NCBI RefSeq assembly: GCF_900114615.1
Contig: NZ_FOTS01000012.1
Span: 1 to 64,000, forward strand
DNA from: Pelosinus propionicus DSM 13327
Lineage (GTDB): Bacteria; Bacillota; Negativicutes; DSM-13327
DNA: 64,000 bases
Reading direction: 5' to 3'
Shown: positions 2,703 to 20,824 of the stretch, in pieces
Layout of the letters: every line of letters starts with the position of its first letter
Numbering within the stretch: the first letter of the stretch is position 1
Program-made: the position numbers and the translations under genes
The notes under the pieces: model-generated
Seen by the model: only the letters and a program-made list of their open reading frames with translations
What the model was told of the DNA's origin: nothing
Database searches by the model: none

Positions 2703-2735
2703 TTGACAACGATTATCATTTTCATGTATCATTTA
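2703..2735 (+). promoter_or_regulatory. Promoter TTGACA-N17-(G)TATCAT with an embedded Fur-box-like half-site ATTATCA; 18/21 identical to the element at 6000-6020
   Basis: ttgacaacgattatcattttc compared with ttgacaattattatcatttag. The Bacillus Fur 7-1-7 half-site ATTATCA is exact in both. Both precede iron/heme uptake genes. Confidence 0.35.
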
Positions 2736-2751
2736 ACTAATAACATATTTA

Positions 2752-2807
2752 ACAGAGGGCCAGGAGCTCCGTCACTAACTAGTTTAGAGACGGAGTTTTT
2801 TTATTGA
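2752..2807 (+). terminator. Leader intrinsic terminator preceded by conserved motif AGAGGGCCAGGAGCTCCG (candidate attenuator or cis-regulatory RNA)
   Basis: Stem CTCCGTC/GACGGAG followed by a T7 run. The same 18-nt motif plus hairpin plus T-run recurs at 6101-6148. Confidence 0.5.
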
Positions 2808-2885: not shown

Positions 2886-5009
2886 ATGAAAAAGAAAATG
2901 ACATGCGCTGTTCTTTCGACAGCAATCGTGATAGGAATGGGCGGATCAGTGTCTCCAGCGTATGCAGAAACGACTATTGAACTGCAGGATCTGTATGTAA
3001 ATCCGGATTATGTAGAGATTGAACGATTAAGAGATACTAAACAAATTATTGTAATTACAAAAGAAGATATTCAGAATAAAGGATATAAAGGAGTTTCTGA
3101 TATTTTAAAGGATATTCCAAGTATCTCTGTAGGTGCAACGGGTATGGGCGATATTGATATTCGTGGGCAAGGATCGGATCAGTCAGTAAGAAACATCCAG
3201 GTTTTGTTGGATGGAGCCCCGATAACAACCTTTGTCAATCACCCGTTAAGTACAAATTATGATGTGGTTCCAGTTGAACAAATTGAAAAAATTGAAATCA
3301 TTCCGGGCGGCGGTTCGGTTCTTTATGGCTCAGGAGCTTCCGGCGGGATTATCAATATTACAACAAACTTGCGTAGTATGAATAAGCCGAACAAGACAAT
3401 TTCAACAGAATGGAATTCAGATGGCTATCGTGCTAATTTTAACTATGGAGAAAAAATCAATAATAAAATAACAACAGAAATCGGATATTTCAAGCAGGAC
3501 AGAGATTTATATTTTAAAGATACATATAAAAAGAGTGAGTATTTTTCTGCTGGAGTTCAGTATGATGCTGGTCAAGGTCAACGATTAACGTTTCGCATGA
3601 GTCATTTAGAGGAAGAAGGTCAATATATTGCTAATATCCAGCCTGCGAAAGTGGCGAAGGCAGGAAGAGATTATGTGCCTGATTATGAAACATATACCGT
3701 TGGCTTGGATGCAGATGGACATAAAATAACAGAAACAAGAAGACCGTATCTATTTGCTGACAGGAGAATGGATTCATACAACATTGGGTATCAAAAGGAA
3801 TTAAGCACTACATGGAAATTTAGCAGTGATCTTTTTTATAATACTGGCTATTTCATGAATAGCAAGTATGAAGATAAAAAAATGGATCATGAAACCAAAG
3901 GGGTAAAACTTAAATTTGACCACTCATATGGTAAAAAAAATAATATTTTGATCGGTCTGGATCTTTATGAACAAGACGCAGAAATTGGATATAACGATTA
4001 TAAGCTTGTCAGCTCCGCACAGAAAACGTATAAGATCGTTCCTTTATCATTTAACTATAATAAAAAAACAAATGCAGTTTATCTATTGAATAATATGTCC
4101 AGAGGGAAATATACGTTCACTCAGGGGATACGGAGAGAAAAGATAGATTGGAGTTTTGATAAAGTCGGCAATAACATCAATGGTGCTGGAACATCCGAAC
4201 GCTGGAATACTGCTAAAGAGCTTTCGCTGGCTTATCATTACAATGATACGGGAAGAATTTATGCACGGTATGAAAGAGGATATACTACTCCGGATGGAAT
4301 ACAGATTACGGACGAAATTAGAGTAAATGGAAGCAAACGATATGTTGGAACATCTGCGAAAGATGAAATCTTTGATCTCTATGAAATTGGTTTACGTGAT
4401 AAGGTAGGTATATCAACTGTTAATTTAACTTTATTTAATTCGAATACGGATAATCAAATGAATCGTATATATCTGTTTGATAACAATGGGTCTCTGACGA
4501 TGCAGACACTTAATATGTTGAAAACCAGACGGAAGGGTTTAGAACTTTCACTGCGCCAAAATTTTGGTAAGCTAACGTTACAGCAAGGCTATGCTTATTT
4601 GCATGGGGAAAGTGATTACACTAATTTTGGACGCAAATTCCTTGAAGAAAATAGCGGAAGTATTATTGATTGGACTAAAAGCGGACTTAAAAAAGTTCCC
4701 AAGCATAAAGGAATTTTGAAAGCAGACTATTCATTTAATGATAAGTTCACTGTAGGTATTAAATACACATATTTTGGAAAGTATAACAATTTCCTTGAAG
4801 ATGCCGATAAAGCTGATGGAGGAGTTATGCAGCCCCATTCATTGGTTGATCTGGATATGAAATATAAGCTTAATAAAGAGATTGAATTGTACAGTGGTGT
4901 AACAAATCTTACAAACAGAAGACACTATGAATATGTAGGAGATTCTTTTGGAACGATTATTCCAGGATCTGAACGTACGTATTACTTTGGCATGAAATAT
5001 GCTTTTTAA
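2886..5009 (+). CDS. TonB-dependent outer-membrane receptor (heme/siderophore class)
   Basis: ATG at 2886 after a GGGAGG RBS. Signal peptide MKKKMTCAVLSTAIVIGMGGSVSPAYA, plug-domain motifs, about 700-aa barrel ending ...YYFGMKYAF (C-terminal Phe). The ORF-track start at 2817 is an upstream in-frame extension. Confidence 0.85.
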   Translation: MKKKMTCAVLSTAIVIGMGGSVSPAYAETTIELQDLYVNPDYVEIERLRDTKQIIVITKEDIQNKGYKGVSDILKDIPSISVGATGMGDIDIRGQGSDQSVRNIQVLLDGAPITTFVNHPLSTNYDVVPVEQIEKIEIIPGGGSVLYGSGASGGIINITTNLRSMNKPNKTISTEWNSDGYRANFNYGEKINNKITTEIGYFKQDRDLYFKDTYKKSEYFSAGVQYDAGQGQRLTFRMSHLEEEGQYIANIQPAKVAKAGRDYVPDYETYTVGLDADGHKITETRRPYLFADRRMDSYNIGYQKELSTTWKFSSDLFYNTGYFMNSKYEDKKMDHETKGVKLKFDHSYGKKNNILIGLDLYEQDAEIGYNDYKLVSSAQKTYKIVPLSFNYNKKTNAVYLLNNMSRGKYTFTQGIRREKIDWSFDKVGNNINGAGTSERWNTAKELSLAYHYNDTGRIYARYERGYTTPDGIQITDEIRVNGSKRYVGTSAKDEIFDLYEIGLRDKVGISTVNLTLFNSNTDNQMNRIYLFDNNGSLTMQTLNMLKTRRKGLELSLRQNFGKLTLQQGYAYLHGESDYTNFGRKFLEENSGSIIDWTKSGLKKVPKHKGILKADYSFNDKFTVGIKYTYFGKYNNFLEDADKADGGVMQPHSLVDLDMKYKLNKEIELYSGVTNLTNRRHYEYVGDSFGTIIPGSERTYYFGMKYAF

Positions 5010-5205
5010 TAGAGAAAAAGAGCAAGAAATAGAAATAGTGAGTCTGCTTTTTATAGACGGGAGCAAATTAGAAAAAACTTAATGCTGGAAAAACGCAGCA
5101 ATGAAAGAAATTCTTACGGTAAGATTGTTCGTGAATAGATTTGGTAAATAAAGCAGGAATAATAAAAGTTTCAATTACTGCTGATTGTGAGTAGGTGATG
5201 TGTTT

Positions 5206-5988
5206 ATGGTAGAGCGTGGATACTGGAATAAATATTTTTTAATTTCATTCGGGATACATGGTTTGGTTATTCTATTGATCTCCTGCTTTGGCTTTCAAAC
5301 TTCTCCGGCTAAAATGAACAACACCGGTGAGTTCAGTGTACAGTTTGTCAATTTGAGTGAGGGAAACATGCAGGACAATGGCAGTCTTTCTGAAAATGCA
5401 GCAAGCTTTTCAACTTCAGTTGCAGGTGAGAGTGCTTTAGCGCAAAAGGATACTTCTGTATATGAACCAGAAAGAAAGAAACCATTTATCAAATCAAGTA
5501 AAGGAATGGAACCAGCTCAGCTGGAAGAAATAAATACAAACAGCAGCCAGATGACTGGAAATAGTACAAGATTATCAGAGGTAACAGGCCTAAATACCGG
5601 TGGGCAAGCAGGTGCAGCAAATCAATCCTTGGGACAAGGAGCGGGCAATGGGATTTTTAGCAACGGCAATTTTTTGTCAAATGGCGATGGCAGTTATACT
5701 GCGTTAAATGCAGAAGGAATATCCTATACGATTCTTCGAGATGCCGATGCTAGGTATCCCGAAGAGGCCCGTTCTATTGGTTATAATCGTGTGGTAAGTG
5801 TACAGGCTAAAATATTGGTAGGGTTGGATGGATCTGTGGAAAGTGTTGAAATCTTAAACTCTGTTCCCAACCTTGGATTTAAGGAATCCGCAACACAAGC
5901 CCTGCGGAAAATGCAATTTGCACCGATTTACTACCAAAGTCATAACGTGAAAATGTATTTTACTAAAAGAATATATTTTCAGCCTTAA
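5206..5988 (+). CDS. TonB-family energy transducer (N-terminal TM anchor, Ser/Gly/Asn-rich linker, C-terminal TonB domain)
   Basis: TM segment YFLISFGIHGLVILLISCF. C-terminal block YPEEARSIGYNRVVSVQAKILVGLDGSVESVEIL...ALRKMQFAP matches the TonB C-terminal domain. Unusual feature: the linker is not Pro-rich. Confidence 0.65.
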   Translation: MVERGYWNKYFLISFGIHGLVILLISCFGFQTSPAKMNNTGEFSVQFVNLSEGNMQDNGSLSENAASFSTSVAGESALAQKDTSVYEPERKKPFIKSSKGMEPAQLEEINTNSSQMTGNSTRLSEVTGLNTGGQAGAANQSLGQGAGNGIFSNGNFLSNGDGSYTALNAEGISYTILRDADARYPEEARSIGYNRVVSVQAKILVGLDGSVESVEILNSVPNLGFKESATQALRKMQFAPIYYQSHNVKMYFTKRIYFQP

Positions 5989-5999
5989 AGTCCGGTTAT

Positions 6000-6032
6000 T
6001 GACAATTATTATCATTTAGTATTATACTGTTA
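6000..6032 (+). promoter_or_regulatory. Second copy of the TTGACAA-ATTATCATTT promoter/Fur-like element
   Basis: See 2703-2735. Followed by a 9-bp-stem hairpin (6039-6068, AGAACTAAT...ATTAGTTCT). Confidence 0.35.
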
Positions 6033-6100
6033 TTATACAAGAACTAATGTAGTAATATATTAGTTCTAATGGAGAAAATGTTTTGTTTTTTATTTAAAAG

Positions 6101-6148
6101 AGAGCCAGGAGCTCCGTTGCGTAAATAAATACGCGCGGAGTTTTTTTT
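6101..6148 (+). terminator. Second leader terminator with conserved motif AGAGAGCCAGGAGCTCCG
   Basis: Hairpin CTCCG..GCG/CGC..CGGAG followed by a T8 run, 23 nt upstream of the ATG at 6171. Confidence 0.5.
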
Positions 6149-6170
6149 ATAAATAAGGAGTGTGAGTTGT

Positions 6171-7247
6171 ATGCTTGGCTATGATGGAACTGTACAGGAT
6201 TTATGGAATGAAACGCCGGCGGCATTGCGCTCCGTTCGGTGTGCCTTTTGCCATAGCATGTTATTTCGCGGTGCAGTAGAAAAAATTGAAATTAAATGCT
6301 CTAAATGCGGTACCGTTCAAGTTGTGCAGCGGAATGGCGAATCTTTGATCAAGGAACGGGACTTGTCACGGAATGGACTTAGAAGAATCAGCGGCATGCA
6401 GAATCGTATGGTAACTGACAGCATGGGAAGGCTTGTAACAATCCCCAGTCAACCGCAGCGTGTTATTATTTTAAATTCATCTAACTTAGGGCTGTTTATT
6501 GAAACAGGTGGTGAGCCGGTTGGGAGAGGAACTTGTGAGATATTGCCGGCTGCGTTGCGGGATAAAATTCAAGATATTCCTACTGTAGGGTTGCCTTGCA
6601 AGCCTGATTTAGACCGTATTCTGGCGATAAAGCCGGATTTGGTTATCGGGATGGCTTTTCCGGCGCATCAGTCGCTGGCAGCTGTTCTGGAAAGGAAAGG
6701 TATTCCAACAATGCTGCAGACATTTGCTCGCTATGCAGATGTTTTGGAAGCTTTACATTTTTATGGAGAGCTAAATGGAAAATCAAACGTTGCTGCCCAA
6801 AAAATTGCTGCTATTGAACAACATCGACAGGCATTAATCGAACAAACTAGCGGGCAGCCTTCACCAAGGGTTCTCATTGTATGGGCGATTGCGGATGGAT
6901 TATATGCAGCATTATCAACAAGTTTCATCGGTGATATGGTAAAACGGCTAGGGGGAGTAAATGTGGCTGATTTGCTAATACCTATGGATGAAAAAATAGC
7001 GTATGCACCATTGGATTACAAAGGAATTCTTGCAGTTCAGCCTGACGTTGTTTTAGTAATTGACCATCGTTTTGATGAAAAAGCGAATCAGGGTATTCAG
7101 CTGTTGCACGATTCACTGTGGCAGGGACTCCACGCTGTTCAGCAAAATTACGTGTACTCTCTTCCTTTTTCCCTGTTTGCAGTGAACCCAGGTGCGCAGG
7201 TTGAGGAAGCCATGAATATTTTGGCTGATTTTCTTTATAAAAGGTAG
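6171..7247 (+). CDS. Cytoplasmic periplasmic-binding-protein-fold (FecB/BtuF/ChuT-like, class III) protein with an N-terminal CxxC...CxxC zinc ribbon; no signal peptide
   Basis: ATG 6171 with AAGGAG RBS. N-terminus CAFCH-(17)-CSKCG; body matches iron-siderophore/heme/B12 binding proteins (LVTIPSQPQRVIILNSSNLGLF...KPDLVIG...). No hydrophobic leader. Confidence 0.6.
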   Translation: MLGYDGTVQDLWNETPAALRSVRCAFCHSMLFRGAVEKIEIKCSKCGTVQVVQRNGESLIKERDLSRNGLRRISGMQNRMVTDSMGRLVTIPSQPQRVIILNSSNLGLFIETGGEPVGRGTCEILPAALRDKIQDIPTVGLPCKPDLDRILAIKPDLVIGMAFPAHQSLAAVLERKGIPTMLQTFARYADVLEALHFYGELNGKSNVAAQKIAAIEQHRQALIEQTSGQPSPRVLIVWAIADGLYAALSTSFIGDMVKRLGGVNVADLLIPMDEKIAYAPLDYKGILAVQPDVVLVIDHRFDEKANQGIQLLHDSLWQGLHAVQQNYVYSLPFSLFAVNPGAQVEEAMNILADFLYKR

Positions 7248-7318
7248 AACAGAATAATAAGTTTTCATTTGTGAACTTTGTGTTGGTTATATTGATAAGA
7301 TGAAAGGAATGATCGTGT

Positions 7319-7843
7319 ATGAAAAAATATATAGTTTTGTACTCATCCCGGACTGGAAATACAAAAAAGATAGCAGAAGCTATTTGCAGTGCCTTGCCTG
7401 CAGGTACTCCCTGCCAGTCGATTGGCGAAGCGTCGGCTGATTTGAATGGTTATGATTGTTTATTTATCGGATTCTGGGTTGACAGGGGGACAGCCGATCA
7501 ACAGACGCAGCAGTTTCTGAAGCAATTAAGTCATCCTCATATTGCATTGTTTGCCACTTTAGGGGCTGATCCGTGTTCTCAACACGCCGCTGACAGCTTA
7601 TGTAATGCGACGGCTCTTTGTCCTAGCGAAAATCCTCTGGTACATAGTTTTATCTGTCAGGGAAAAGTTGATCCGCAGCTGATTGAACAAATGAAAAGAA
7701 TGTTTCCTCCCGGACATCCTCATGCGGTGGATGAAAAACGAGAAGCCACTCATGAGGAGGCGAAAAAGCACCCCAATGAAGCAGATGTGGCAGCTGCTAA
7801 AGCCTTTGCCGCGGAGACCATTAAGCGAGTGGAGAACATGTGA
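7319..7843 (+). CDS. Flavodoxin-like protein
   Basis: MKKYIVLYSSRTGNTKKIAE... carries the flavodoxin FMN-binding T/SxTGxT motif. It is translationally coupled to the next gene. Confidence 0.75.
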   Translation: MKKYIVLYSSRTGNTKKIAEAICSALPAGTPCQSIGEASADLNGYDCLFIGFWVDRGTADQQTQQFLKQLSHPHIALFATLGADPCSQHAADSLCNATALCPSENPLVHSFICQGKVDPQLIEQMKRMFPPGHPHAVDEKREATHEEAKKHPNEADVAAAKAFAAETIKRVENM

Positions 7844-9315
7844 TGATGAAACTACAAGACTTATTTCAAACACTATCGGCGGAAGATAAAGCCCTGCAGC
7901 TGGGATTTGAAAAGGCAGATCCTCTGACGGGAGCTTTTTCTCAAAAAAGGGTAGTGCATGCAGGTACGCAGGGTCGTCCAGTGTCACCCGGTCAAGCGCA
8001 AGTGTTGTGGTGTCAGGTTATGGAGCAGACGCCGGCAGAAAAAACGGAGCGAGCAGCTTATATTCATATTCCGTTTTGCCAGACCAAATGTTTGTATTGC
8101 AACTTTTTTCAAAATGCAGTCAATCAAACAGCAGAGGACTACTATATTGACTGTCTGATTCGAGAGTTAGAAAACGATGCCGATTTTCCTCAACTAAAGG
8201 ATGGGCTGATCCATGCCGTCTTTATCGGCGGTGGAACTCCTACCTCATTGTCTCCGCATAATGCTCGCAGGTTGCTGAAGACAATTCATCGCTGTTTGCC
8301 GCTGGCTGGCGATTATGAATTGACTCTGGAAGGCAGAAGCAGCGATCTAATACCGGAAAAAATGGATGTTTGGATGGAGAACGGTGTCAATCGTGTATCG
8401 ATTGGCGTGCAATCATTTCATACGAAAATTCGCCGTCAATTAGGACGGGTAGATGATCAGGAAACTTTACTGAAGCGGTTGGCTGGGTTGAAAGCGTATC
8501 ACCAATGTTCTGTTATTGTTGACCTTATCTATGGCTTGCCTAATCAGGATATGAAGGCATGGGAGGAAGATTTGCAGATTTTAACAGATTCTGTGGTTGA
8601 CGGTATGGATTTATACCAGCTCAATGTATTTTACGACAGTGAGCTGGAAAAACAGATATTGGCAGGAAAAATGTCTCCTGCGGCCAGTACTTCTCAGCAG
8701 GCCCAAATGTATGCCTATGCTCAGGAATTTGTAGAAAAACGTGGTTTTTCACGTCTTAGTATTTGTCATTGGCGGCGAAGCAATAGGGAACGGAGCCTTT
8801 ATAATACGTTGGCGAAGAGGGGGAGCACCATGTTCTCCTTTGGCTGCGGTGCAGGCGGCAATGTAGGTGGTTATTCGACTATGCTTCACCGAAGTCTAAA
8901 GCCGTACCAAAGTATGGTTATGGAAGGAATAAAGCCATTCATGGCTATGATGGAACAGACACCGGTGCAGTCTATTATCAATAGCATATTGGAACAATTG
9001 GAACGCGGTTTTTTAGATTTGCAACGATTGATTAAAGCGAATGATCGGCTGGCTGAATTAAAATGGCTCTATGATCTTTGGGAACAAAGAGGGCTTGTGC
9101 ATTATGACGGTGTCTATTCCTTGACTGTTGCTGGTCAGTTCTGGCAGGTTAACATTGCCCAAACTACCGTGGAATGTGTAGAGTTTATTTTGCTGCAAAC
9201 ACACAACATTGCAGTGCAGGGAATCGCTGCACAGAATGGAAAGGCGCAGCTTCCGGGAGGTAAAGTTATGCCTCCGGGGCATCCGGCAATTTCTCTGTCT
9301 GATAGAGGAAAATAG
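7843..9315 (+). CDS. HemN-like radical SAM enzyme, ChuW/HutW-type (anaerobic heme-degrading methyltransferase family)
   Basis: HIPFCQTKCLYCNF is a CX3CX2C radical-SAM motif in a HemN-like context. Position next to a TonB heme receptor plus flavodoxin matches the chuW/hutW/hmuW arrangement. Confidence 0.65.
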   Translation: MMKLQDLFQTLSAEDKALQLGFEKADPLTGAFSQKRVVHAGTQGRPVSPGQAQVLWCQVMEQTPAEKTERAAYIHIPFCQTKCLYCNFFQNAVNQTAEDYYIDCLIRELENDADFPQLKDGLIHAVFIGGGTPTSLSPHNARRLLKTIHRCLPLAGDYELTLEGRSSDLIPEKMDVWMENGVNRVSIGVQSFHTKIRRQLGRVDDQETLLKRLAGLKAYHQCSVIVDLIYGLPNQDMKAWEEDLQILTDSVVDGMDLYQLNVFYDSELEKQILAGKMSPAASTSQQAQMYAYAQEFVEKRGFSRLSICHWRRSNRERSLYNTLAKRGSTMFSFGCGAGGNVGGYSTMLHRSLKPYQSMVMEGIKPFMAMMEQTPVQSIINSILEQLERGFLDLQRLIKANDRLAELKWLYDLWEQRGLVHYDGVYSLTVAGQFWQVNIAQTTVECVEFILLQTHNIAVQGIAAQNGKAQLPGGKVMPPGHPAISLSDRGK

Positions 9316-9347: not shown

Positions 9348-9725
9348 ATGTATCCTGGTAAAATCATTAAAAAATATATTTTGATGGCAGTGGGCTGTCT
9401 TTCATTATTCCTTGGCATTCTAGGTATATTTCTTCCCCTGCTGCCAACTGTGCCTTTTCTTTTACTCACTGCGTATTGCTTTGCTCGCAGTTCTAGGCGA
9501 CTGTATAATTGGCTGATTCACCATAAAACATTTGGCAGCTATATTTATGATTACCAAACTTACCGGGCCATTAAGCGAAAAACGAAGATTATGGCGATAT
9601 GTTTTTTGTGGGGATCGCTGGGGCTTTCAATGAGTTTATTGTCTGACGTGTATATCTGCCTTTTATTAACTCTTTTAGGGATGGGTGTGACATTCTATAT
9701 TCTCTCATTGCAGACTTTAAAATAA
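9348..9725 (+). CDS. DUF454 (YbaN-like) small inner-membrane protein
   Basis: LGILGIFLPLLPTVPFLLLTAYCFARSSRRLYNWL is characteristic of the YbaN family. Confidence 0.65.
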   Translation: MYPGKIIKKYILMAVGCLSLFLGILGIFLPLLPTVPFLLLTAYCFARSSRRLYNWLIHHKTFGSYIYDYQTYRAIKRKTKIMAICFLWGSLGLSMSLLSDVYICLLLTLLGMGVTFYILSLQTLK

Positions 9726-10008: not shown

Positions 10009-10797
10009 ATGATTAACGAAATAACCAGTGAATTAACACGGATTGAATCAGAAAACGGAGTTAAGATTTTATATGCTGTTGAATCTGGCAGCCGGGGTTG
10101 GGGCTTTGCTTCAAAGGATAGCGACTATGATGTGCGGTTTATATATATTCGTCCGTTGGCAGACTATCTTAGTATTGAGGACCACAAGGATTTTATAGAG
10201 GTACCCATCAATAGCCTTTTAGATATTAATGGTTGGGATATTCGAAAAGCTTTGAGATTATATCGAAAATCCAATCCACCACTTATGGAATGGCTGAGTT
10301 CACCTATTGTATATAGAGATGAACATTCCTTGGCTGAGAAGCTTAGAACATTGAGCGTGGAATATTTTTTGCCAGTGCCTTCGCTGCATCATTATTTAAA
10401 CTTGGCAAAAAAGACATTTCAGGAAATGCTTATAACAAAGCAGGTTAGAATTAAGAAGTATTTTTATGTGTTAAGACCCCTTATGGCCTGCAGATGGATT
10501 GATACATACCAAACGATGGCACCTATGGATTTTCATAAGTTAATGGCTGGTCTAAGGATTGAAGAGGATATTCGGGCGGGAATAGACAGTCTGATGGAGC
10601 GCAAGCTTATCAGCATAGAATCCGATATTGAGCCAATCAATCAGCAGTTATATCAGTATTTTAGCGAAACCATTGCTTATTATGAGGATAAAATTCGTCT
10701 TTTACCCAGAAAAGATCATCCAGAAAAAGCAGCATTAGATGCATTATTTTGCAAGATAGTAAAGGAGGCCTGGGCTGGAGAAAGTACATCTAGCTAA
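10009..10797 (+). CDS. Pol-beta-superfamily nucleotidyltransferase, RlaP-like (COG3541/PF10127-type), copy 1
   Basis: GS-x10-DxD signature ESGSRGWGFASKDSDYDVRFIY. This family is described as associated with RtcB RNA-repair operons. Confidence 0.6.
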   Translation: MINEITSELTRIESENGVKILYAVESGSRGWGFASKDSDYDVRFIYIRPLADYLSIEDHKDFIEVPINSLLDINGWDIRKALRLYRKSNPPLMEWLSSPIVYRDEHSLAEKLRTLSVEYFLPVPSLHHYLNLAKKTFQEMLITKQVRIKKYFYVLRPLMACRWIDTYQTMAPMDFHKLMAGLRIEEDIRAGIDSLMERKLISIESDIEPINQQLYQYFSETIAYYEDKIRLLPRKDHPEKAALDALFCKIVKEAWAGESTSS

Positions 10798-10804
10798 AGA
10801 CGTT

Positions 10805-11803
10805 ATGGATATTCAAAAGATCAAAGAGAAAATAAATAGCACAGAATATGATTTCCTACGGAAAAACAGGAATCTTGGTGATAGAATGATTCTACTGACC
10901 ACAGGAGGTTCATATGCCTATGGCACTCATGTGGAAACCAGCGATACTGATATTCGAGGGATTGCTGCAGAACGAAAAGAAGAACTGTTAGGGCTGTCAA
11001 ACTTTGAGCAGTTTGAAGACCGTATTACAGATACGGTAATTTATGGTCTCCGCAAGACCGTAAACCTTGCCCTGGCTGGAAATCCTAATATTTTAGAGAT
11101 GCTGGGCACTCGCGAAGATCACCTGTTGATTTTAACCGACGAAGGCAAATGTTTACGGGATCATGCAGATCTATTTCTATCAAAGAGAGTAATTCAGAGC
11201 TTTGGGAATTATGCCACTGCTCAGCTAAGACGGCTCCAAAATGCACTGGCCCGGGACAGTTATCCCCAAGCAGTAAAGGAACAGCATATGTTAAATAGTA
11301 TACAGGGACAGATGCATCATTTTAAGCAAAAATACCATCAATTTATGAATGAAGAAATTAACCTGTATATCGACAAGTCTAACAAAGAGGATTATGAAGC
11401 AGAGATTTTTATGGATATCAACTTGAAACATTATCCTTTGAGAGATTTTAAATCGATTTACTCAGAGATGAGCAATGTAGTTAAGGATTATTCCCAATTG
11501 AATCACCGCAATAAAAAGAAAGATGCATTGAAATTGAATAAACATGCGATGCATCTGATTCGGCTTCTGATTACAGGTTCAGAGATACTTCAGGGTAAGG
11601 GGATACATACCTATAGAGCTGCTGAGAGGGATTATCTTTTAGAGATTAGAAGTGGGAAATTTACCTATGAAGAGATTTTTGCAGCCGTTGATAAATTAGA
11701 AGCTGAATTCAAATATGCGGCGCAAAATACGGTTCTACCAGATGAACCTAACCATAAGGCAGCAGAGGAGCTTCTCATCTGTATTTATGAAAAAATGCTT
11801 TGA
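10805..11803 (+). CDS. Pol-beta-superfamily nucleotidyltransferase, RlaP-like, copy 2 (diverged paralog)
   Basis: TTGGSYAYGTHVETSDTDIRG is the same GS...DxD signature. Confidence 0.6.
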   Translation: MDIQKIKEKINSTEYDFLRKNRNLGDRMILLTTGGSYAYGTHVETSDTDIRGIAAERKEELLGLSNFEQFEDRITDTVIYGLRKTVNLALAGNPNILEMLGTREDHLLILTDEGKCLRDHADLFLSKRVIQSFGNYATAQLRRLQNALARDSYPQAVKEQHMLNSIQGQMHHFKQKYHQFMNEEINLYIDKSNKEDYEAEIFMDINLKHYPLRDFKSIYSEMSNVVKDYSQLNHRNKKKDALKLNKHAMHLIRLLITGSEILQGKGIHTYRAAERDYLLEIRSGKFTYEEIFAAVDKLEAEFKYAAQNTVLPDEPNHKAAEELLICIYEKML

Positions 11804-17286: not shown

Positions 17287-18531
17287 ATGCTAGAAAAAGA
17301 GTTTGTAAGAAAAATCAATAGGATTCATGGTGCGGCATATGTTGTTGGTGGATGGGTTAGAGATTGGATTAGAGGAGTTATCCCTAAAGATAAAGATTAT
17401 GTGATTACTGGTGTGCTTGAAGAGGATTTTAATGAATTGTTTCCACAAACAATTAAAATAGGCAAGTCCTTCCCTGTATATTTGCTAGAAATCAATGGCG
17501 AGTCTTGTGAAATTGCATTTGCCAGGCAGGAACGTAAAACGGGTGTAGGTTATAAGGGGTTTGAGGTTTCCTTTGATAAAAGTATCCGTATTACGGATGA
17601 TCTATATCGTAGAGATACAACGATGAATAGTATTGCCTTTGATTTACAAACGCTTGAACTGATAGATCCATTTCAAGGTAAGCAGCACATTGCTGAACGA
17701 AAGATATTCCCCACTTCACATCATTTCAAAGATGATCCAATTCGGGCGCTGCGAGCAGCGAGACAATCAGCACAGTTTGATTTTTCCATTGATGAATCAA
17801 CAATTGCGTTGATGAAGGAATGCCGGGAAGAATTAACGAGCGAGCCTAAAGAACGATTATTTAATGAACTGGACAAGGCTTTACAATCGAATAAGCCATC
17901 GCTATTTTTCTTAGCATTACAACAGGCTAATTTGTTGGATATCACGTATCCTCCAATTCATGCATTAATTGGACAGACACAACCCGTCCAGTATCACCCA
18001 GAGGGAGATGCCTTTAACCATACCATGGATGTTGTAGATCGGGTCTCGGAGCTCAACCCCAGAATTGAGGTGCGATTTGCAGCATTAGTACATGATCTTG
18101 GCAAGGGACTGACGCCAAAGGAGAAATTGCCAACGCATCATCTGCATGATGTGCTGGGGCTTGATGCCCTAAAGGCGTTCGATAAGCATATTGGATTACC
18201 TAATAAGTGGATAGCATGTGCAGAGTTTGTCATCCAGCACCATATGCGTGTCAATAAATTAAAACAAAAAGGTAAAATCGTTGATTTTATCCTTGCGTTA
18301 CATAAAAATCCAATTGGTGATAAAGGATTTAGTGATGTTTTGCTCGTTGACAATGGAAGTCTGCCAGATTGCTTGCTGAATTTCGAGAAATATATTACTG
18401 CAATTAAGACGGTAAAGGGCAATGATGCACCGAGTGAGTTGCAAGGGAAAGAGATAGGGGATTGGATTAGGCAGCAACAGATTAAAGCATATGGTCAGCA
18501 AAAATGGCTTTCTAAGATTAATGATAGATAA
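17287..18531 (+). CDS. cca: CCA-adding tRNA nucleotidyltransferase (class II Pol-beta NTase with HD domain)
   Basis: N-terminal GGWVRD and head motifs (RRDTTMNSIAF); HD-domain HxxHD (HHLHDVLG). Confidence 0.8.
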   Translation: MLEKEFVRKINRIHGAAYVVGGWVRDWIRGVIPKDKDYVITGVLEEDFNELFPQTIKIGKSFPVYLLEINGESCEIAFARQERKTGVGYKGFEVSFDKSIRITDDLYRRDTTMNSIAFDLQTLELIDPFQGKQHIAERKIFPTSHHFKDDPIRALRAARQSAQFDFSIDESTIALMKECREELTSEPKERLFNELDKALQSNKPSLFFLALQQANLLDITYPPIHALIGQTQPVQYHPEGDAFNHTMDVVDRVSELNPRIEVRFAALVHDLGKGLTPKEKLPTHHLHDVLGLDALKAFDKHIGLPNKWIACAEFVIQHHMRVNKLKQKGKIVDFILALHKNPIGDKGFSDVLLVDNGSLPDCLLNFEKYITAIKTVKGNDAPSELQGKEIGDWIRQQQIKAYGQQKWLSKINDR

Positions 18532-19333
18532 AGGTTTTTAATGAAGTATATTTCTAAGAAGCATCAAGAATAGGGGTGAATCAATAGTCTTAAGTATGAG
18601 AAAGTAATAAATGAATGGGACCCAATTAACTTATAGCAAAGAAAATAGTTGATAATTTATAATCCCAAAGATGTGGGAGGATTTATGGCTTGGATATTTA
18701 TATTATAAGGAAGATTGCGATTTCACAAGGTATCAATTAAAATACAAGTTACTTATTATGGCGTAACGACAAAATGTGAGGAATTAATATCGACCTCATG
18801 CGAAGGGGGGACTAAGGATGAAGAATTACTGGTCATCATTCTGAAAAATTTGATCAGTGCTGCCTTCCAGCCGCTTTCCTTGAAGGTTTTTTAAAATAAA
18901 AAATAAGGATAGTATCCTTGGAAGTGTTTTGTTGGCTACTCATAAAATACTAGTGAATATTTCAAATTTATTACCATTAATTCTGCAATAATAATGCTTG
19001 GCAACAATAATATACTTATGGTAATATATTAGCATATCCTTGGAAATCAGTTTGATAAGTAAAATAATAATGAAACATGCAAACTTATTGAAAGGTAAGG
19101 ACGCAAAGCCATGGGTCTACATACTTTTGTATACGGCTGCCAGGTTGCAATTGCAATCTGGCATTTTTTGTTGTGAATAAAAATAGTTATTATTTAAAAA
19201 TTTTAAAAGTAGGGTTACCATAAAAAAGAATAAATGGTAAAATAATACAACGAATATTAATGCCTGCACAGTGGAAGAAATAGGTACTGTTTGCAATTGA
19301 TCATGTATATTTTATCGGGTGGTGAATTATTGA

Positions 19334-20824
19334 GTGAAAAAAAATTTAATACTATGCTTTGCAATGACAGCAATAATAGGTACATCGACTGGGTATCCCT
19401 TTGGGGGTGAGTGGATGGGAAATGTGGCTTATGCTGCTTCAAACCAGCTTGATAATGTTTCTACTGCTAATTCAGAAAAGTTCAAAGTTGACTTTGCCTA
19501 TGAAATGTCTCAAATTACATCCACAATCGTATCTTCTCAAAATACAAATGTTGAAAGTTTTAAGAGTGAGTTTGCATATGCAACTGCTAAGGTAACAGCA
19601 AAAGTAATGCAATTTATACCTGACTCCCAAAAGAAGGACTTTTCCTATGAAATGGCACAAATTACAACAAAGATAATAAATGATCCAAACTTGAATGTTG
19701 AAAAAGCCAAAGTTGAATTTGCGTACAAAACTGCGCAACTTACAAGCAAAATCATAGCAAGCACAGAGCCGATTACCGTAGGTAATACAACTGCAACTGC
19801 AACTACAAATACAACGACGTTGCTTAGGAATAATGCTGATATTGAGCAAAAATTAGTAGGGAAAGCAAATACGATTTCTGCTAGTCCAAAACCAATGATT
19901 CAGACAAGTGATGTTACTCCGGAGACATATACAAGTCTTTTAAATGAATTGAAGCATGTGGGAGACCACAGAAGTAACTTGGATAATAAGATAAATATTG
20001 ATGGTGAAATTCGTTATCACTACGCATTAAACAGTGGTCTTGGACAAATAGGCAAGGATTCTTCGGGTTTTCGGGCACGTCTTGCTATTGATACGGAATT
20101 TAATAAAGATTGGCGTGTTTACGGAGGTTTGGAAGGCAAGAAAAATATAGTGAATTATGATAATGGTTTTGAGTTTTCCCGCTTATATATAGCTGGCAAA
20201 TTAGGACAATCCATGGTAAAAGCTGGTTCTTTTGGCTATCTCATGGCAGAAGGAAATATTTATGATAGTGATTATGATGGTGTTCGGGCTGATTTCGGTC
20301 GACCAATCAAATACACAGTGAGTTATGGATCCACTAATGATACTCAAAAAACATATATTGCAACTGCACTTTATAATGATTTTGATTATAATCTAGAAGC
20401 TGGTGTTTATCGCAATCAGCTGAATGACAGCAGTAATAGCCGAAACACCATTCGTACCCTTGGCGGCAACTATAATTTCAGTAATTTTAGTTTAGGAGCT
20501 ATGGTTTTGAACTCTAGTCTGAAAGATACAAAAGGTAACCGCAATGGATATGTGTTTAGTTTTAACTATGGTGATCTCAAAACATGGAGACCAGGTACTT
20601 ATGGCGTCTTTGCTAAATATTATAATCAGCCTCAATATACTTATATTTCTCATGGTATGAATGGTTCTGGTAGCAAGATGGGAGGCTTTAGGGGTTATGG
20701 TATAGGTATGAGCTATACCGTTGCTGAAAATTTTGTTGCAGGAATTGAATATTATAGTTTAGCAGATAAAATTAACGGAGACAAAGGCGATACTTGGTGG
20801 AGCCAGTTAACTCAGTATTTTTAA
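19334..20824 (+). CDS. Putative outer-membrane beta-barrel protein with signal peptide, 4 x 22-aa N-terminal repeats and a C-terminal ...QYF
   Basis: GTG start after a GGGTGGTGA RBS. Repeats KVDFAYEMSQITSTIV / FKSEFAYATAKVTAKVMQ / KKDFSYEMAQITTKII / KVEFAYKTAQLTSKII. The C-terminal half alternates hydrophobic residues (beta-barrel-like) and ends in Phe. Confidence 0.5.
   Translation: MKKNLILCFAMTAIIGTSTGYPFGGEWMGNVAYAASNQLDNVSTANSEKFKVDFAYEMSQITSTIVSSQNTNVESFKSEFAYATAKVTAKVMQFIPDSQKKDFSYEMAQITTKIINDPNLNVEKAKVEFAYKTAQLTSKIIASTEPITVGNTTATATTNTTTLLRNNADIEQKLVGKANTISASPKPMIQTSDVTPETYTSLLNELKHVGDHRSNLDNKINIDGEIRYHYALNSGLGQIGKDSSGFRARLAIDTEFNKDWRVYGGLEGKKNIVNYDNGFEFSRLYIAGKLGQSMVKAGSFGYLMAEGNIYDSDYDGVRADFGRPIKYTVSYGSTNDTQKTYIATALYNDFDYNLEAGVYRNQLNDSSNSRNTIRTLGGNYNFSNFSLGAMVLNSSLKDTKGNRNGYVFSFNYGDLKTWRPGTYGVFAKYYNQPQYTYISHGMNGSGSKMGGFRGYGIGMSYTVAENFVAGIEYYSLADKINGDKGDTWWSQLTQYF

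Follow-up and report, generated by a model that had tools for sequence, protein, structure and literature searches.

A Com-type zinc finger fused to a cytoplasmic class III binding-protein domain in Pelosinus propionicus: a candidate heme-sensing RNA-binding regulator

Results

The fusion gene and its locus

The first 64 000 nucleotides of contig NZ_FOTS01000012.1 of Pelosinus propionicus DSM 13327 (assembly GCF_900114615.1), the whole of which is referred to below as the window, carry a gene for a protein in which a zinc ribbon of the phage Mu Com family is joined to a binding-protein domain of class III (cluster A). This fusion gene opens a unit that continues with an HmuF/FldH-like flavodoxin, a radical SAM methyltransferase of the ChuW/HutW type and a membrane protein, and it lies downstream of genes for a TonB-dependent outer-membrane receptor (TBDR) and for TonB (Table 1). 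In the leaders of both the fusion gene and the TBDR gene a promoter-like site is followed by a candidate Com-type RNA site and an intrinsic terminator. On the evidence set out below we lean towards the view that the fusion protein would be a cytoplasmic, heme-sensing, one-component RNA-binding attenuation regulator of the Com type. A search of the literature turned up no paper describing either the fusion or the leader element. The original prediction, made from the letters of the DNA, had correctly placed the gene in a locus of ChuW-type anaerobic heme degradation but had assigned the protein a different role, that of a chaperone feeding the ChuW-like enzyme, which is taken up further on.

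Table 1. Positions of the fusion gene, its domains, the two leaders and the neighbouring genes in the window.
Feature	Position	Strand	Remarks
Com-zinc-finger/class III binding-protein fusion, coding sequence, 358 aa	6171–7247	+	100% identical to P0001, Pelosinus propionicus
Com-family CCCC zinc ribbon	6225–6350 (aa 19–60)	+	C24, C27, C43, C46
Cluster A (class III) binding-protein domain	6396–7244 (aa 76–358)	+	PF01497, AlphaFold2 model, Foldseek
Promoter-like site of the fusion unit	5999–6028	+	−35 TTGACA 5999–6004, −10 TATACT 6023–6028
Candidate Com-type RNA site, GAGAGCCAGGAGCUCC	6100–6115	+	Two GAG(N)2CC half-sites and one CC(N)2GAG
Intrinsic-terminator hairpin and U8 run	6107–6148	+	RNAfold −20.1 kcal/mol
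Shine–Dalgarno sequence AAGGAG	6155–6160	+	10 nt ahead of ATG 6171
Second, near-identical Fur-box-like promoter, upstream of the TBDR gene	2703–2732	+	
Second leader: candidate Com-type site GAGGGCCAGGAGCUCC (2755–2770), then terminator hairpin and U run	2755–2802	+	−18.3 kcal/mol; 55 bits (covariance model)
TonB-dependent outer-membrane receptor (TBDR)	2886–5009	+	ATG 2886 likely start; signal peptide
TonB	5200–5988	+	Pfam scan
HmuF/FldH-like flavodoxin (Flavodoxin_3)	7319–7843	+	PDB 8g64 (FldH structure) match 5e-20
ChuW/HutW radical SAM anaerobic heme-degrading methyltransferase	7840–9315	+	TIGR04107, 491.7 bits, cutoff 400
DUF454 membrane protein, last gene of the unit	9348–9725	+	Pfam/NCBIfam scans

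Domain architecture of the fusion protein

The N-terminal ribbon matches the Zn_ribbon_Com family of Pfam (PF10122; 29.6 bits, the cutoff being 22.9; E 4.8e-7) over model positions 2–42 of 52. An N-terminal zinc ribbon had been predicted with 17 residues between its two CxxC pairs; the ribbon stands but the spacing does not, the arrangement being C-x2-C-x15-C-x2-C. By family profile it is to be classed as an RNA-binding finger of the phage Mu Com type. Its closest relatives in an exhaustive phmmer search of 1.84 billion representatives were standalone Com-like proteins of 41–74 amino acids, and no other fusion architecture was returned, a single short query having limited reach in such a search. 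Two standalone Com relatives lie on contigs of about 1 kb, too short to show their neighbours. With the standalone Com of Sporomusa termitida the finger shares 51% identity. Weak tblastn matches of the finger were to proteins annotated as Com regulators in phage B3 and in a Mu-like coliphage, and two fragments were matched when its 69 residues were used in a word-indexed protein search.

The body of the protein had been described as a class III substrate-binding protein (SBP) of the heme/siderophore/B12 type, and both profile and structure agree with this. Residues 98–334 match Peripla_BP_2 (PF01497, 91.8 bits), and an AlphaFold2 model built on 44 homologues (mean predicted local distance difference test score, pLDDT, 81) has the cluster A fold: a small beta-ribbon at residues 21–62 is followed by a disordered linker (61–75) and a confident two-lobe domain that includes a long helix at 205–225. 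The best Foldseek matches were YfiY, HtsA, IsdE and FecB, with TMt values of 0.79–0.85 to the first three. No ANTAR, CAT, PRD, PyrR, HutP or TRAP module was found in Pfam and NCBIfam scans of the fusion.

Start site and cellular location

The original prediction also held that the start is fixed at 6171 by the AAGGAG sequence and that a signal peptide is absent, and here too it was sound. An in-frame TAA codon at 6150–6152, upstream of the ATG, makes any upstream extension of the reading frame impossible, and orthologues of the protein share the same start (MLGYD, or more generally MxGY, in the alignment). The position of this stop codon, the spacing of the Shine–Dalgarno sequence and the start common to the orthologues together exclude a missed leader peptide. 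The alternative start GTG 6162 was rejected as it lies only 1 nt past the Shine–Dalgarno sequence. The protein contains no hydrophobic segment: the maximum Kyte–Doolittle value over 15 residues is 0.99 in the first 90 residues, as against 2.3–3.5 in secreted paralogues, and such a segment was found in none of the 34 fusion clusters described below, every orthologue being without a leader. The pair of arginines at residues 73–74 was considered as a twin-arginine (Tat) signal and rejected, the hydrophobic region that should come after it being absent. The protein is thus predicted to be cytoplasmic and, as far as sequence can tell, export is excluded.

Distribution and origin of the fusion

When the same fusion was sought in other genomes, it was found in 28 clusters (at 90% identity) of a long form of about 350–365 amino acids and in six of a short form of about 320 amino acids in which the finger directly abuts the binding domain. 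This number of clusters excludes an assembly accident. All belong to the Sporomusaceae (Pelosinus, Sporomusa, Anaerosinus and metagenome-assembled genomes) and the fusion persists across genera down to 40% identity. The nearest non-fused relatives, which are 32–38% identical to the window protein, have a membrane anchor or a signal peptide in the place of the finger. The ratio of non-synonymous to synonymous substitution rates (dN/dS) between the window gene and its orthologues in loci L005 and L006 was 0.12–0.28 for the finger and 0.12–0.13 for the binding domain, as would be expected of two functional parts that are both under purifying selection. All database copies of the fusion are annotated as ABC transporter SBPs.

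Com-type fingers also occur alone in these loci. At 7690–7905 and 9787–10978 of L137, a relative of lower G+C content, a 66-aa standalone Com-like gene lies just 13 nt 5′ of a gene for a secreted heme SBP, an adjacency that looks like the ancestral arrangement that gave rise to the fusion. Standalone Com genes lie within the same heme regulon in S. termitida, L106 and L137. A standalone finger of 62–65 amino acids is encoded at 9351–9539 (−) of L003 and at 485–682 (−) of L106, as the first gene of a divergent heme operon. Both are loci of the short-form fusion and so have two Com-type proteins each, and copies of the leader element flank the standalone Com gene. In S. termitida and L106 the gene for the short form and the heme operon are divergently transcribed, an arrangement that in the former resembles that of a regulator gene.

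The binding-protein domain has kept its pocket residues and relaxed those for docking

The residues by which SBPs of this class dock to their permease were located from BtuF, whose sequence was checked against 1n2z and aligned to the family by hhalign; the docking glutamates are numbered Glu72 and Glu202, and their 130-residue spacing was verified. The heme-ligand positions were identified from IsdE by the spacing of its ligands Met78 and His229 in 2q8p. Glutamate is present at both docking positions in 10/10 secreted paralogues, whereas it occurs in only 11 of the 28 long fusions at the first and in 15 of 28 at the second, and the window protein has D148 and K284 there. Conversely, the histidine equivalent to IsdE His229 (H299 in the window protein) is found in 28/28 long fusions and in 9/10 secreted paralogues, and a tyrosine (Y278) in 28/28 and 7/10 respectively. 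A component of a transporter that had been taken over as a ligand sensor in the cytoplasm would be expected to show this pattern, in which docking is lost and the pocket kept. In the window protein Cys143 (6597–6599, LPCKPD) lies at the position of IsdE Met78, and several Sporomusa fusions have Cys-Pro there (PPCPD); such a Cys-Pro resembles heme-regulatory motifs but is not conserved across the family.

The ligand is probably heme or a close tetrapyrrole, which we infer from the loci in which the gene lies (ChuW, HmuF-like flavodoxin, ChaN), from the roughly 45% identity of the fusion to the secreted heme SBP of its own locus, and from IsdE being its best named match, although the NCBIfam IsdE match, at 105.7 bits, is far under the cutoff of 298.65.

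These features bear on the simplest alternative, that the protein is an ordinary periplasmic SBP which is exported by an unrecognized route or whose start has been mis-called. This is the function given in the databases, and in S. ovata and L058 the gene adjoins, and indeed overlaps, FecCD, which is where the gene for a transporter SBP would sit. However, these two loci also carry a separate secreted SBP; a secreted paralogue serves the FecCD-ABC importer in the same locus in S. ovata, L058 and S. termitida, and the fusion does not replace the binding protein of the importer. Moreover, the stop at 6150 leaves no upstream start, none of the 34 clusters has a hydrophobic segment, a folded N-terminal zinc ribbon is incompatible with Sec export and a Tat signal is absent, the docking glutamates have been lost from the window protein and the FecCD and ABC genes are missing from the 64-kb window. 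We therefore regard this alternative as extremely improbable.

A conserved leader element with two mutually exclusive structures

The promoter of the fusion unit is overlapped at 6000–6014 by a Fur-box-like 7-1-7 element, TGACAATTATTATCA, with one mismatch to TGATAATNATTATCA, the Fur consensus, and the near-identical TBDR promoter likewise overlaps such a sequence. Downstream of the promoters, both window leaders share a 16-nt element (GAGRGCCAGGAGCUCC; in its wider consensus GAGRGYC-NN-GAGCUCC) that runs directly into a strong hairpin and U run, and a 19-mer covering the element is present in two copies in the window where none is expected by chance. Within the element GAGC (6102–6105) can pair with GCUC (6111–6114) across the loop CAGGA, giving a hairpin of 4 bp, termed P1, which when folded alone has a stability of −3.5 to −4.4 kcal/mol across leaders (−4.4 in that of the fusion). 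P1 is paired in 88/88 cells of the alignment and shows two double changes, one in Anaerosinus (G-C to A-U) and one in L012 (C-G to U-A), the latter repeated in L137; this covariation was reached by 0/500 shuffles. The loop has the form YNNGA, its A being invariant and its G nearly so.

The terminator hairpins range from −14 to −24 kcal/mol across leaders, and in the covariance model alignment their stem pairs in 89% of cells, compensatory changes being seen at 6/12 pairs. P1 and the terminator share the strand GCUC, with which the 5′ arm of the terminator begins, so that the two structures are mutually exclusive; termination should therefore be the default, with a trans-acting factor required to hold P1.

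A covariance model built from 22 copies was searched against 14 loci (about 250 kb). It found 23 instances, two of them in the window and 21 in leaders of heme-uptake units in other Sporomusaceae loci, and the next best matches scored below 14 bits. All 23 are sense-oriented, joined to a terminator and placed ahead of units for the uptake of heme or iron, the gene that follows encoding the fusion, a standalone Com, TonB, ExbB, a TBDR or a secreted periplasmic binding protein. The element precedes the fusion gene in each related locus examined. A metagenome scan for the 18-nt element gave mostly chance matches in GC-rich coding DNA and, among the matches listed, those in L027, L058 and L106 are real. 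In L139, a heme locus with a secreted SBP on a contig that is incomplete upstream, the model gave weak matches within coding sequence.

The leader has no family in Rfam 15 at the gathering score, and the search was also run at E ≤ 10; the only match on the leader was to the atoC RNA (RF01733) at 6057–6148 (+), with 21.3 bits where the gathering score is 50, and it is probably driven by the terminator hairpin. Two further features of the leaders were noted. Between the promoter and the Com-type site of the fusion unit lies a perfect 9-nt inverted repeat (AGAACTAAT/ATTAGTTCT, 6040–6048/6059–6067), which is absent from the TBDR leader, while S. termitida leaders carry a different hairpin there. 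L137 has a variant of the element, GAGAGUCUAGAACUCC, at 7742–7757, and an insert of about 130 nt separates the arms of its terminator.

The element resembles the RNA target of phage Mu Com

Com of phage Mu is a 62-aa translational activator with a CCCC zinc finger that binds the mom mRNA beside a translation-inhibition structure, which its site (GAAUGCCUGCGAGCAUCC in Mu) adjoins or overlaps (PMC6483171). RNAs selected with a Com finger by systematic evolution of ligands by exponential enrichment (SELEX) carried 5′-GAG(N)2CC-3′, mostly in two copies, and in the hairpin formed by the site the closing pair is invariably C-G and the GA of the loop is essential (Nowacka et al., 2019; PMC6483171). 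The core of our leaders, GAGAGCC-AG-GAGCUCC, holds two copies of GAG(N)2CC and one of CC(N)2GAG, and P1 is closed by C-G around a C-N-N-G-A loop. The bipartite SELEX pattern, fixed a priori, has three matches in the window on both strands where 0.21 are expected, and two of the three are the two leaders. The third, at 18054 (−), was treated as chance, as it is antisense inside an open reading frame (ORF) and has no terminator. L137 has the leader element together with a standalone Com inside the heme operon while the fusion is absent, which links the RNA element with the finger and not with the binding-protein domain. The leader elements thus match the recognition motif of Com and are candidate sites for the finger of the fusion, and we infer that this finger may bind RNA.

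Two alternatives can be weighed here. In one, the leader works on its own as a riboswitch or is under the control of an unrelated factor, and the fusion is a DNA-binding transcription factor or has some other role. Some Com-family proteins are named DNA-binding regulators by NCBI, GAGCTC is a palindrome in DNA, and the element has no Rfam family, all of which would fit. However, the predicted TBDR transcript starts only about 10–15 nt ahead of the element, a length insufficient for a riboswitch aptamer; the 23 copies are uniformly sense-oriented and joined to a terminator; and the element is asymmetric and matches a motif selected as RNA. We consider this alternative improbable. In the other, the finger does bind the leader RNA but the binding-protein domain is vestigial, a scaffold or dimerization device left over from the fusion of com with an SBP gene, and the protein provides simple positive feedback as a standalone Com would. 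The 13-nt spacing of the two genes in L137 offers an obvious route to such a fusion, and standalone Com genes do occur in the same regulon. Against this, purifying selection acts on the binding-protein domain as it does on the finger (dN/dS about 0.12), the histidine and tyrosine of the pocket are invariant with only the docking glutamates relaxed, and the fusion has been kept through divergence to 40% identity between genera, so that a vestigial domain appears improbable.

Gene order and the possibility of a heme chaperone

The fusion gene lies directly 5′ of the HmuF-like flavodoxin and ChuW genes in seven loci. In L012 it stands beside TBDR-TonB, ChuW being absent from the locus. No FecCD permease, ABC ATPase, ExbBD, ChaN or secreted SBP gene is present within the 64-kb window.

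The role originally proposed, that of a cytoplasmic heme chaperone or buffer whose binding-protein domain would pass heme from the importer to the flavodoxin or ChuW while the ribbon serves for docking or stability and the leader is controlled otherwise, has to be judged against these data. Its premises have stood, in that the protein is predicted to be cytoplasmic, its body is of class III and the locus is of the ChuW type; the position of the gene ahead of the flavodoxin and ChuW genes, its overlap with FecCD in S. ovata and L058, and the invariance of the His229 equivalent in the fusions all agree with it. The chaperone role is nevertheless not the best supported one. The ribbon is of an RNA-binding family, every leader contains an RNA site that matches it, the short form is transcribed divergently, L012 retains the gene with TBDR-TonB where ChuW is absent, and the standalone Com genes in these operons would be left unexplained. 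In addition, there is already a candidate for the post of chaperone in the relative of HmuF/FldH encoded next door: flavodoxins of this type bind heme and FMN, deliver heme to HmuW, a homologue of ChuW, and also reduce anaerobilin (PMC10404700). A pure chaperone is therefore unlikely in our judgement, although of the alternatives it is the one that deserves most weight.

Several other features in and around these loci were recorded. At 1733–2251 (−) of the window is an ORF with a LysR substrate-binding domain only and no helix-turn-helix, possibly a truncated regulator beside the heme locus. Adjacent ORFs of 262 and 332 amino acids at 10009–10797 and 10805–11803 (+) are nucleotidyltransferase-like by eye. 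A cyclic di-GMP-I riboswitch (RF01051, 69.4 bits, E 1.6e-11) lies at 19068–19152 (+), upstream of the ORF at 19334–20824. In the metagenomic locus L058 a gene for a DtxR/MntR-like metalloregulator (6875–7303) is immediately 5′ of the leader and the fusion gene.

Discussion

In the mechanism that we favour, repression of the Fur type would be lifted under iron limitation and transcripts would then halt at the leader terminator. The Com finger would clamp P1 (GAGC-[YNNGA]-GCUC) in the nascent leader RNA, and its binding would stabilize this hairpin, of about −4 kcal/mol, in competition with the terminator, of about −20 kcal/mol, and allow RNA polymerase to read through. The C-terminal domain, a duplicated copy of the importer's binding protein that lacks a signal peptide, would sense cytoplasmic heme or tetrapyrrole and gate the binding of RNA. 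The targets would be the fusion-flavodoxin-ChuW-DUF454 operon and the TBDR-TonB operon, expression of which would require low iron together with a tetrapyrrole signal, and the site in the leader of the fusion gene itself would make the protein autoregulatory. That heme induces is a guess on our part; release of the RNA triggered by heme is equally possible. A dual role as chaperone and regulator is also possible, and there is a precedent for it in PhuS, which has been reported to combine the two.

A number of observations weigh against this mechanism. On the side of the RNA, several leaders carry GAGAGCU instead of GAGAGCC as the first half-site, P1 has only 4 bp, and its covariation comes from three divergent loci (L011, L012 and L137), the loci being phylogenetically related. 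The finger is about 37% identical to the phage and Haemophilus Com fingers from which its RNA binding is extrapolated. With the element lying ahead of the fusion gene as well, the association of the two could be due to co-regulation alone, and the standalone Com proteins of L137 and L003 show that the action of the finger needs no ligand domain. On the side of the ligand, the position of IsdE Met78 is not conserved among the fusions and the fold search with Foldseek does not separate heme from siderophore ligands. The positions of the gene ahead of the flavodoxin and ChuW genes, which it occupies in most loci, and next to FecCD, described above, also count against it.

The comparison with known systems is instructive. 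With Mu Com the fusion shares the PF10122 family of CCCC zinc ribbons and a target in the form of a short hairpin closed by C-G, with a CC(N)2-3GAG loop and a bipartite GAG(N)2CC motif, beside or overlapping an inhibitory RNA structure. Mu Com, however, is a standalone phage protein of 62 amino acids with a disordered tail and no ligand domain which opens a structure that inhibits translation, whereas here a chromosomal finger is carried on a ligand-binding fold of 280 amino acids, the structure in competition with the site is a terminator of transcription and the regulon serves the uptake and degradation of heme; the mom gene is absent at this chromosomal heme locus. The logic proposed, in which a ligand-controlled RNA-binding protein chooses between antiterminator and terminator, is that of AmiC/AmiR of Pseudomonas aeruginosa, of ANTAR proteins generally, of LicT/SacY-RAT, of HutP and of TRAP. 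AmiC/AmiR comes closest, as its sensor is likewise a cytoplasmic periplasmic-binding-protein fold, but in the fusion the sensor and the RNA module would be in one polypeptide, the fold is of cluster A and not the type I LivJ-like one, and the RNA module is a zinc ribbon.

From the heme SBPs IsdE, HtsA (SiaA) and HmuT, with which it shares the fold and the axial histidine (IsdE His229), the fusion differs in having neither signal peptide nor lipobox, in the loss of the docking glutamate pair (in the window protein), in the lack of conservation at Met78 and in the absence of a partner permease from the window. By profile it belongs to the Com finger family and to the cluster A fold, but it lacks three features by which a transporter SBP is functionally defined, namely export, the docking glutamates and, at this locus, a partner permease. 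ChuX/HutX, ChuS/PhuS and HmuF/FldH are cytoplasmic like the fusion, which plausibly binds heme as they do, and are found in the same type of locus (ChuW/HutW/HmuW); their folds are unrelated to that of the fusion and we know of no zinc finger or RNA element for any of them.

The annotation of the fusion as an ABC transporter SBP thus appears to be a recurrent mistake in the databases, to which we would draw attention. Tentatively, we would go further and suggest that cellular descendants of the phage Com finger may act as riboregulators of heme acquisition in the Sporomusaceae, and that the fusion, derived from adjacent com and SBP genes, may be the first heme- or tetrapyrrole-responsive RNA-binding antiterminator as well as the first one-component regulator at the RNA level with a sensor of the transporter (cluster A) type. 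If this is true, a zinc finger joined to the binding-protein fold of a transporter would be a new architecture among ligand-sensing RNA-binding regulators. With its finger of 45 amino acids and its site of 16 nt, it would form a compact and testable protein–RNA switch of possible use as a heme-responsive genetic part. The Com family would gain a cellular role outside the control of phage mom, and anaerobes that possess ChuW would couple their iron status, through Fur, to the availability of heme during transcription elongation.

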